IMG/VR virus record: IMGVR_UViG_2529292883_000001
Span: 1-44,584 of that record
Length of the DNA stretch: 44,584 nucleotides
Source: a virus
Taxonomy: Duplodnaviria; Heunggongvirae; Uroviricota; Caudoviricetes
Direction: 5' to 3' (one strand)
Shown here piece by piece: positions 28,083 through 28,994 of the stretch. The notes below the pieces were generated by a model that did not search any database, was not told the origin of the DNA, and was given only the letters and a program-made list of their open reading frames with translations. The position numbers and the translations under genes were made by a program. Each line of letters starts with the position of its first letter. The first letter of the stretch is position 1.

Positions 28083-28490
28083 ATGAAGCGAATGACTACC
28101 CTTGAAATAACCACGTACCGAATAAAATTGGTGCTGGAAAAAACTGGACTTAAGCAGGCAGAACTAGCCCGCAGGATTGGTGTTGCCCAACAATCGGTCC
28201 AAAAGTGGGTTCATGGCATCACAAGCCCATCAACGGCTAATCTTGATAAGCTTTCTGAAGTGACGGGGTTTCCTCCGTATTGGTTTATGTTACCACCAAG
28301 CGAAGAAGAGCAAGTCGTAGTGCCTGACACAATGAAAATAGGTCCCAGACAAAGAGAATTGCTTCAAACTTTCGGAGCATTTCCAGAAGAAGATCAAGAA
28401 CAAATGCTAAAAGATATGAAAGACAAAAAAGAGTCAATGGATCGCACAGTCGAAAGGTGGCTCGCTGCCCAGAAAGGGCGTCGAGCGTAA
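28083..28490 (+). CDS. Short HTH (XRE-type) prophage repressor, RacR/PaaR-like
   Basis: 135-aa ORF divergent from the cro-like gene; HTH LKQAELARRIGVAQQSVQKWVHG. Confidence 0.65.
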   Translation: MKRMTTLEITTYRIKLVLEKTGLKQAELARRIGVAQQSVQKWVHGITSPSTANLDKLSEVTGFPPYWFMLPPSEEEQVVVPDTMKIGPRQRELLQTFGAFPEEDQEQMLKDMKDKKESMDRTVERWLAAQKGRRA

Positions 28491-28520
28491 TATCTGTAAC
28501 CGATAAGAGGAGGTATGTGA

Positions 28521-28712
28521 ATGAATACAGTCCTTTCACCAATGGTTTCTGAATTTGAAACCATTGAACAGGAAAACAGTTACAACGAATGGCTACGCGC
28601 GAAAGTAGCAGCAAGCCTTGCAGATCCGCGCCCAGCAATCCCCCATGACGAAGTTGAGCGTAGAATGGCAGAACGCTTCGCTAAAATGCGCAAGGAACAG
28701 AGTAAGCAGTAA
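28521..28712 (+). CDS. Type II antitoxin, PaaA2-like, partner of ParE
   Basis: 63-aa ORF with strong RBS AAGAGGAGGT; stop adjoins toxin start; sequence recalled as close to E. coli O157 PaaA2. Confidence 0.6.
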   Translation: MNTVLSPMVSEFETIEQENSYNEWLRAKVAASLADPRPAIPHDEVERRMAERFAKMRKEQSKQ

Positions 28713-28994
28713 ATGTTACCCGTGATATGGCTTGAAAGCGCAGATACCGACCTAGACGATATAACTAGTTATATTGCTCGTTTCGACATAGATGCGGCAG
28801 AGCGTTTATGGCAGCGATTAAGAGGTTGCGTACTGCCGTTATCCGAACATCCGTATTTATACCCACCAAGTGACAGAGCGCCTGGTTTGCGTGAGATTGT
28901 AGCTCACCCTAATTATGTAATTCTTTACCGTGTAGCCACTTCAAGTATTGAAATTGTGAGTATCGTGCACGCCAGACGCCAGTTCCCCAAATAA
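28713..28994 (+). CDS. parE: ParE/RelE-superfamily toxin
   Basis: 93-aa ORF; C-terminal HPNYVILYRV...IEIVSIVHARR signature. Confidence 0.75.
   Translation: MLPVIWLESADTDLDDITSYIARFDIDAAERLWQRLRGCVLPLSEHPYLYPPSDRAPGLREIVAHPNYVILYRVATSSIEIVSIVHARRQFPK

Follow-up and report, generated by a model that had tools for sequence, protein, structure and literature searches.

The stretch analysed here, IMG/VR virus record IMGVR_UViG_2529292883_000001 at its full length of 44,584 nucleotides (the window), is an Escherichia coli chromosome segment that consists mostly of a lambdoid prophage, as seen from open reading frame (ORF) and family matches across the 44.6 kb. The subject is a row of three genes in the prophage, encoding a regulator with a helix-turn-helix (HTH) domain (here called R), an antitoxin of the PaaA2 type and a toxin of the ParE2 type, together with the promoters and operators on either side. 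An earlier note on this DNA had described an HTH repressor, a 63-amino-acid (aa) antitoxin and a 93-aa toxin on the same strand, with a 30-nt spacer, a strong ribosome-binding site and adjoining stop and start codons; all of this was found as described, and the ORF coordinates were exact. The features of the gene row are the following.

28083-28490, plus strand: R, an analogue of CI, DicA and PaaR; 135 aa, N-terminal HTH_3 domain at residues 14-68 and PaaR2-like C-terminal domain at residues 81-135
28505-28514, plus strand: ribosome-binding site for paaA, AAGAGGAGGT (contains GGAGG), 7 nt before the ATG; read from the sequence
28521-28712, plus strand: antitoxin gene of the paaA2 type; 63 aa, without a DNA-binding domain (PF21217, PDB 3zbe)
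28713-28994, plus strand: toxin gene of the parE2 type; 93 aa (PF05016, PDB 5cw7)
29015-29046, plus strand: intrinsic terminator ending the R-paaA-parE operon; U-run after a 12-bp hairpin (29015-29041)

The R, paaA and parE genes

The antitoxin was matched by the Pfam model PF21217 PaaA2 (1.1e-20, 73.7 bits; cut-off 27) and by PDB entry 3zbe, the solved PaaA2 chain (2e-34). The toxin was matched by PF05016 ParE_toxin (1.5e-16, 61.2 bits; cut-off 23) and by PDB entry 5cw7, the ParE2 chain (4.9e-57). When aligned with the proteins of E. coli O157:H7 EDL933, 59 of the 63 antitoxin residues (93.7%) were identical to PaaA2 and 83 of 92 toxin residues (90.2%) to ParE2. The ParE-family toxin-antitoxin (TA) pair that had been proposed was thus borne out by 90-94% identity to PaaA2 and ParE2 as well as by the Pfam and PDB matches. 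The antitoxin stop codon TAA (28710-28712) abuts the toxin ATG (28713). A minimal ATG-TGA "start-stop" (ggtATGTGAATG) was observed at 28515-28523, between the Shine-Dalgarno sequence and the paaA ATG, and a similar ATG-TAA overlaps the start in the related E. coli locus L001; the ATG-TGA may be incidental. The labels given to these genes by PGAP are "HTH domain protein", "RelB family antitoxin" and "RelE/ParE toxin"; this wording hides their PaaR/PaaA2/ParE2 identity, and in that lies the annotation value of the present assignment.

The HTH_3 domain of R was recognised by PF01381 (2.4e-13), and R resembles the HTH domains of the 434 and P22 C2 repressors (PDB matches). HTH was the only domain found in R with Pfam; an S24 autocleavage/peptidase domain was not among the matches. 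Against the NCBIfam DicA subfamily model, R aligned over its full length (2.3e-16), with a score of 59.8 bits that is below the curated cut-off of 101 bits. Homology to PaaR2 was confined to the C-terminal 55 aa (51% identity, E = 3e-17). As judged from these alignments, R is a domain-swapped allele, in which a DicA-like DNA-binding domain is fused to a PaaR2-like C-terminal domain. The PaaR-PaaA-ParE likeness suggested in the earlier note held for the TA pair, the gene order and the context, with an HTH regulator gene in the expected place upstream of paaA; for R itself it held over the C-terminal 55 aa only. The R allele was not found in deposited phage genomes, which gave only distant relatives of <60% identity (Gifsy, DicA and CI-like repressors), and R shared 29% identity with a repressor that the "phage Rac" record labels dicA.

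The spacer between R and paaA (30 nt, 28491-28520) contained no hairpin, and its folding was no better than that of shuffled sequence (z = −0.42). The generic terminator scan returned two weak in-gene matches only, which equals chance expectation, and none between R and paaA; an independent terminator at this place would, according to the earlier note, have refuted its proposal. The terminator beyond parE had a fold of −15.5 kcal/mol (z = −4.79; 0/200 shuffles as stable), and the hairpin was found at the same place in L001 and in a second related locus, L002. This anatomy is consistent with a single R-paaA-parE operon, which would be co-transcribed from one promoter, PRM, as in the homologous system described below.

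Putative divergent promoters and operators

Upstream of R, two genes run in the opposite direction, and candidate promoters and operators were assigned both between them and R (OR) and beyond the terminator (OL).

27288-27713, minus strand: ydaT-like gene (CII analogue); 141 aa, Pfam YdaT_toxin 1.4e-9
27697-27975, minus strand: ydaS-like gene (Cro analogue); 92 aa from ATG 27975, Pfam YdaS_toxin/HTH_3
27703-27720, no strand: YdaT operator OM, TTGATTTTCATGAATCAA; exact TTGATTN6AATCAA, spanning the ydaS stop and the ydaT start
27976-28082 (107 bp, R-ydaS intergenic), no strand: OR region with divergent promoters, predicted from the sequence and by analogy with mapped CP-933P promoters
28031-28026 and 28008-28003, minus strand: putative PR, −35 TTGATT and −10 TATAAC, 17 nt apart; hand alignment
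28071-28076, plus strand: putative PRM, −10 TAAAAT, 6 nt before ATG 28083; hand alignment
28010-28020, no strand: putative OR operator ACTTTTAAAGT, with weaker repeats ACACCTTTAAGC (~28031) and ACACTTTTTTTATG (~28056); deduced from the sequence
29058-29101, plus strand: OL/PL region, with putative operators ACTTTATAAGT (29061-29071) and ACTTAAAAAGT (29084-29094)
29073-29078 and 29096-29101, plus strand: putative PL, −35 TTGACA and −10 CATTCT, 17 nt apart; directly beyond the terminator, hand alignment

The reference for this arrangement is prophage CP-933P of E. coli O157:H7, in which PaaR2 acts like CI (shown experimentally), YdaS like Cro and YdaT like CII, and in which PaaR2 replaces CI and paaA2-parE2 replaces rexAB (PMC8630535, PMC9986795). 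The YdaT of the window was 83.7% identical to that of CP-933P. The YdaT site TTGATTN6AATCAA, which was footprinted experimentally and lies at the ydaS/ydaT junction in CP-933P (PMC9986795), had its sole 0-mismatch match in the window at OM. Up to this operator the window DNA is near-identical to EDL933, and immediately beyond it the two are unrelated. YdaS, with GGAG 8 nt before its ATG at 27975, shared just 27% identity with its CP-933P counterpart, against 78-80% with the YdaS proteins from loci in which the R allele is the same. After ydaS-ydaT follows an O-like replication gene (PHROG replication initiation protein).

The PR region (28006-28040) and 29064-29098 form a 35-nt inverted copy that is 77% complementary. 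In L001 and L002, E. coli loci whose R is 98% identical, the window motifs recur at OR as well as at OL; in EDL933, where the repressor is PaaR2, both positions are occupied by repeats of the GTTTAGT type, the published PaaR2/YdaS operators of CP-933P (PMC8630535, PMC9986795). The putative operators co-vary with the R N-domain and the YdaS allele, as expected if R is the immunity repressor. Judging from these motifs, the N-terminal domain of R probably recognises the window's own ACTTnnnAAGT-type operators at OR and OL.

Two start codons were considered for R. PGAP starts close homologues at the second ATG (28092, 132 aa); the first, ATG 28083, is conserved in relatives and stands exactly 6 nt after the TAAAAT −10 box. 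The spacing equals that of paaR2 (GATAAT, 6 nt, ATG), the mRNA of which is leaderless according to 5'RACE and N-terminal sequencing (PMC8630535, PMC9986795). By analogy, R is probably translated from a leaderless mRNA. Because ATG 28083 is conserved and its geometry is like that of leaderless paaR2, the 135-aa form is plausible, and no less likely than the 132-aa one.

PL is oriented towards a DUF1391 gene, the DicF small RNA (sRNA), dicB, the exonuclease and the integrase. With DicF and dicB downstream of this PL-like promoter, cell-division inhibitors should be de-repressed as well when R is lost, as in Qin. DicF was located at 30157-30208 (plus strand; Rfam RF00039, 71.8 bits), and after it, within 30278-30756 (plus strand), a dicB-like ORF (MKTLLPNVNTSEG...) and a DUF1482-like ORF were observed.

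Probable immunity region and proposed role of the toxin-antitoxin pair

Taken as a whole, the locus very probably serves a lambdoid E. coli prophage of the CP-933P / Rac / Qin kind as its immunity region, with R as the CI-like repressor and the TA pair as an addiction module. Among the ORFs scanned elsewhere in the prophage, no second cI-like gene was seen.

The closest known system is paaR2-paaA2-parE2 of CP-933P / Sp12 (Hallez 2010; Jurenas 2021, PMC8630535). It has the same three-gene order, spacing and strand as the window, and shares with it the divergent ydaS-ydaT, an identical YdaT operator, the −10-to-ATG geometry, and a PL-like promoter with matching operators after the TA pair. The two differ in the N-terminus of the repressor (that of PaaR2, which begins MQKKE...., is unrelated to the HTH_3/DicA-like one of the window), in the operators (GTTTAGT-type there, ACTTnnnAAGT-type here), and in YdaS and the replication gene. 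Since the operators, the R N-domain and YdaS (27%) differ, the window prophage can be taken as a heteroimmune relative of CP-933P. CP-933P has been described as cryptic, whereas Q, lysis, terminase and tail genes are still present in the window prophage.

In lambda, as proposed for the window, the cargo genes of cI-rexA-rexB share the PRM transcript with the repressor, sit between OR on one side and a terminator and OL/PL on the other, and are expressed in the lysogen; cI is a leaderless gene, as R probably is. The rexAB-like position given in the earlier note was accordingly found, with the TA pair between OR/PRM and the terminator that precedes OL/PL. There is no sequence relationship between the two: the window cargo is a type II TA pair and not RexAB, and R is without an S24 autocleavage domain. 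Because this domain is lacking, induction through RecA-stimulated self-cleavage would be impossible, as stated for PaaR2 (PMC8630535); in R, only the HTH was found. The resemblance to DicA of Qin and RacR of Rac in E. coli K-12 lies in the alignment of R with the DicA model and in DicF and dicB downstream of PL, as in Qin. Neither Qin nor Rac is known to have a PaaA-ParE pair behind its repressor.

In the proposed mechanism, R would bind OR and OL and thereby shut off PR (ydaS, ydaT and the replication genes) and PL (the side of DicF, dicB, exonuclease and integrase), and it would control its own PRM. The paaA and parE genes would share the PRM transcript, ending at the terminator at 29015-29046, and, being on this transcript, the TA pair would be made in the lysogen, in the rexAB slot of lambda. 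PaaA, predicted to be unstable and unable to bind DNA by itself, would wrap around ParE and neutralise it. If the immunity region were lost or replaced, PaaA would decay, and ParE, a nucleoid- or topoisomerase-directed and SOS-inducing toxin, would kill or arrest the cell. By analogy, then, the TA pair would act as an addiction module stabilising the prophage and its immunity region.

The analogy draws on experiments with the homologue. The paaR2-paaA2-parE2 genes form one operon repressed by PaaR2; PaaA2, which has no DNA-binding domain, neutralises ParE2 on binding it and is broken down by ClpAP and ClpXP; and ParE2 is nucleoid-associated and SOS-inducing (PMC8630535, PMC4803016). A mini-F plasmid was stabilised by the paaR2-paaA2-parE2 locus as well as by ccdAB, and the authors concluded that the TA pair is an addiction module protecting the immunity region (PMC8630535). 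For the window, joint transcription, control by the repressor, a labile antitoxin, toxicity and plasmid stabilisation would all be carried over from this 90-94% identical CP-933P homologue.

Several observations weigh against this interpretation. The N-terminal half of R had no pairwise similarity to PaaR2, so that the operators are those suggested by the window sequence itself. PR, PL and PRM were assigned by hand alignment and have sub-consensus hexamers, and the generic sigma-70 scan of 27600-29300 found no promoter. The palindromic motif ACTTNNNAAGT had three matches in 44.6 kb (28010, 29061 and 29084), all in OR or OL; this speaks for the interpretation, but the count is illustrative only because the motif was derived from the very regions counted. 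Tandem R genes precede the TA pair in about a dozen of 80 IMG/VR prophage contigs retrieved via ParE, and in E. coli GF60; there, an HTH_3-type R could regulate the TA pair specifically and not be the immunity repressor. For CP-933P, ParE2 activity was detected in neither transcriptional state, and its natural role was described as open (PMC8630535).

The earlier note had suggested two roles, prophage stabilisation and abortive infection, and these fared differently: stabilisation is backed experimentally in the homologue, and abortive infection found no support here or in PADLOC. If the pair were mainly an anti-phage abortive-infection or exclusion system equivalent to RexAB, infection would deplete PaaA and free ParE, and the cell would die before the invader replicates. 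The rexAB position, the predicted expression from the lysogenic promoter and a Ren-like exclusion gene in the same prophage would fit such a system, and defence is a role often ascribed to TA modules in general. Yet PaaA and ParE matched 0 PADLOC families and R only generic HTH components (PADLOC-DB), and no report of PaaA2-ParE2 defence was found in a literature search that included ParDE-type phage defence. The experiments on the homologue favour addiction or stabilisation, with no toxin activation detected in normal growth. A mainly defensive role is thus considered unlikely. The effect of the TA pair could be tested on a live temperate phage, because the window prophage retains lysis, packaging and tail genes and the module is also present in the deposited phage Evi.

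Linkage of R with the toxin-antitoxin pair in related loci and prophage setting

In the 80 IMG/VR contigs, PaaA and an R bearing the conserved C-domain were present in all (80/80). The N-domain of R was of the PaaR2 type in 50 and of the HTH_3 type in 30. When the C-domain only was used as the query, the TA pair was directly downstream in 77/78 informative loci; since these loci are closely related to one another, the linkage may be simple adjacency. The exception was L183:2267-3181, where an R with a PaaR-type C-domain is followed by an unrelated low-GC 120-aa ORF (no NCBIfam match) that replaces paaA-parE. From the unrelated ORF in L183, the position after the repressor appears to be a variable cargo slot.

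R could also be mainly the dedicated regulator of a mobile R-paaA-parE cassette (a split antitoxin), and not the true immunity repressor of the prophage. Adjacency in 77 of 78 loci speaks for this, as do the tandem loci, in which a PaaR2-type gene followed by an HTH_3-type R and the TA pair resembles a cassette inserted behind another repressor. The window, on the other hand, contains one R, which is divergent from a Cro-like gene, and the putative operators of R are duplicated at PL, beyond the TA pair; L183 keeps R with other cargo instead of the TA pair, and for PaaR2 the CI-like role was shown experimentally (PMC8630535, PMC9986795). PaaA/ParE pairs of other Proteobacteria, moreover, have no R homologue upstream, so that R is not an intrinsic part of the TA system. 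Such a cassette is therefore very improbable, and an immunity repressor of the CI kind remains the preferred reading of R.

The pairs in other Proteobacteria (PF21217 "stability determinant" with PF05016) consist of a ~63-aa antitoxin that has no DNA-binding domain and, right after it, a ParE with 45-72% identity to the window toxin; they have heterogeneous neighbours and lie outside lambdoid immunity regions. Upstream of the non-enteric pairs, no homologues of the PaaR C-domain, YdaS or YdaT were found by tblastn, and there were 3 weak HTH matches only; the upstream ORFs were taken by a longest-ORF heuristic, which gives many spurious ORFs in high-GC genomes. The null result of tblastn agrees with what has been suggested in print, the capture of a two-gene module by a lambdoid immunity region.

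A related idea is that the PaaR-type C-domain is functionally coupled to the TA pair and not merely adjacent to it, since it stays with PaaA-ParE whatever DNA-binding domain precedes it and the R genes are sometimes in tandem. In one form of coupling, the PaaA-ParE complex or free ParE may act on the oligomerisation domain of the repressor. For PaaR2, no interaction of this kind was detected, as reported in PMC4803016. If the idea were true, the toxin:antitoxin balance would feed into the lysis-lysogeny switch, or the reverse, but we regard it as improbable.

Among 5426 complete E. coli genomes, a paaA2-parE2-like pair (>=80% DNA identity) was present in 628 and the R/OR allele of the window was matched in 71. 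The best matches in these genomes were 96% for R and 92% for the TA pair; thus, the exact R-TA combination of the window is absent from them. Because paaA2-parE2 occurs with at least two repressor DNA-binding domains that are unrelated, each with operators to match, it has apparently survived, or spread through, swaps of the immunity region, and policing of such swaps by the TA pair was proposed in the CP-933P work (PMC8630535). What is new here is the allele combination only, a known TA pair with a different repressor DNA-binding half; the system, its position and the rexAB analogy have already been published. As the system has also been dissected experimentally, the discovery value is small.

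Escherichia phage Evi (LR597642.1) carries a PaaR2-type R, PaaA2 and ParE2. In its record the PaaR2-like and PaaA2-like genes are annotated and the ParE2 gene is not (L165:2954-3229, ~24917-25192); the ParE2 product is 90% identical to the window toxin over 92 aa.

The tandem loci include L143:2988-4288, L130:2975-4285 and L166:2032-3342 (E. coli GF60), where a PaaR2-like 123-aa gene is followed by an HTH_3-type R and paaA-parE. The second R is ~64% identical to the window N-domain; the conserved C-terminal domain is present in both R genes. The second R of L143 has apparently lost its normal stop codon and reads into paaA.

L002:4323-4795 (E. coli Z1323CEC0010) has the same R allele (98%) with a mosaic TA pair: the antitoxin is PaaA2-like over residues 1-44 and has a C-terminus of the "...HDEAMAEIENLI" type, and the toxin has a different N-terminus and a ParE2-like C-terminus. 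This mosaic points to the exchange of one contiguous DNA block, comprising the antitoxin C-terminus and the toxin N-terminus. Both antitoxin C-terminal types occur in other Proteobacteria, and the L002 variant was present in 77 E. coli genomes. Identity of the mosaic pair with the O157 paralogue paaA1-parE1 was considered, and its distribution speaks against this: no O157:H7 genome was among the 25 records listed, and 77 is a number below that expected were the pair present in the many O157:H7 genomes.

The remaining prophage genes have a lambdoid layout, with tail, head, terminase and lysis genes, Q, RusA and the replication initiator on the minus strand and exonuclease and integrase on the plus strand. 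To the right of the prophage lie 10 kb of host flank, which are 99% identical to many E. coli genomes and contain tRNA-Ser, mtfA, tRNA-Asn and a large gene for an Ig-like adhesin. The integrase gene (33553-34578) is followed at once by a tRNA (34634-34720, minus strand), which is probably the attachment site; the corresponding E. coli regions have a tRNA-Ser annotated next to mtfA. The flank has a second tRNA at 35712-35784 (plus strand), annotated tRNA-Asn, and the Hfq-binding sRNA STnc490 at 44145-44268 (plus strand).

Within the prophage, a cluster of five tRNAs was observed at 18208-18510 (minus strand), with the Q antiterminator region on one side and the lysis genes on the other. The sok antitoxin RNA was found at 22813-22988 (minus strand; Rfam RF01794, 111 bits), and its presence points to a hok/sok-type type I TA locus as a second addiction-type module in the same prophage. 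No separate gene for a P/DnaC-type helicase loader was seen between the O-like gene and the Ren-like gene, whereas the related loci L001-L003 have an ATP-binding ydaV-type gene. The Ren-like exclusion protein is encoded at 25680-26105 (minus strand; PHROG 142, 4e-46), directly after the O-like replication gene.

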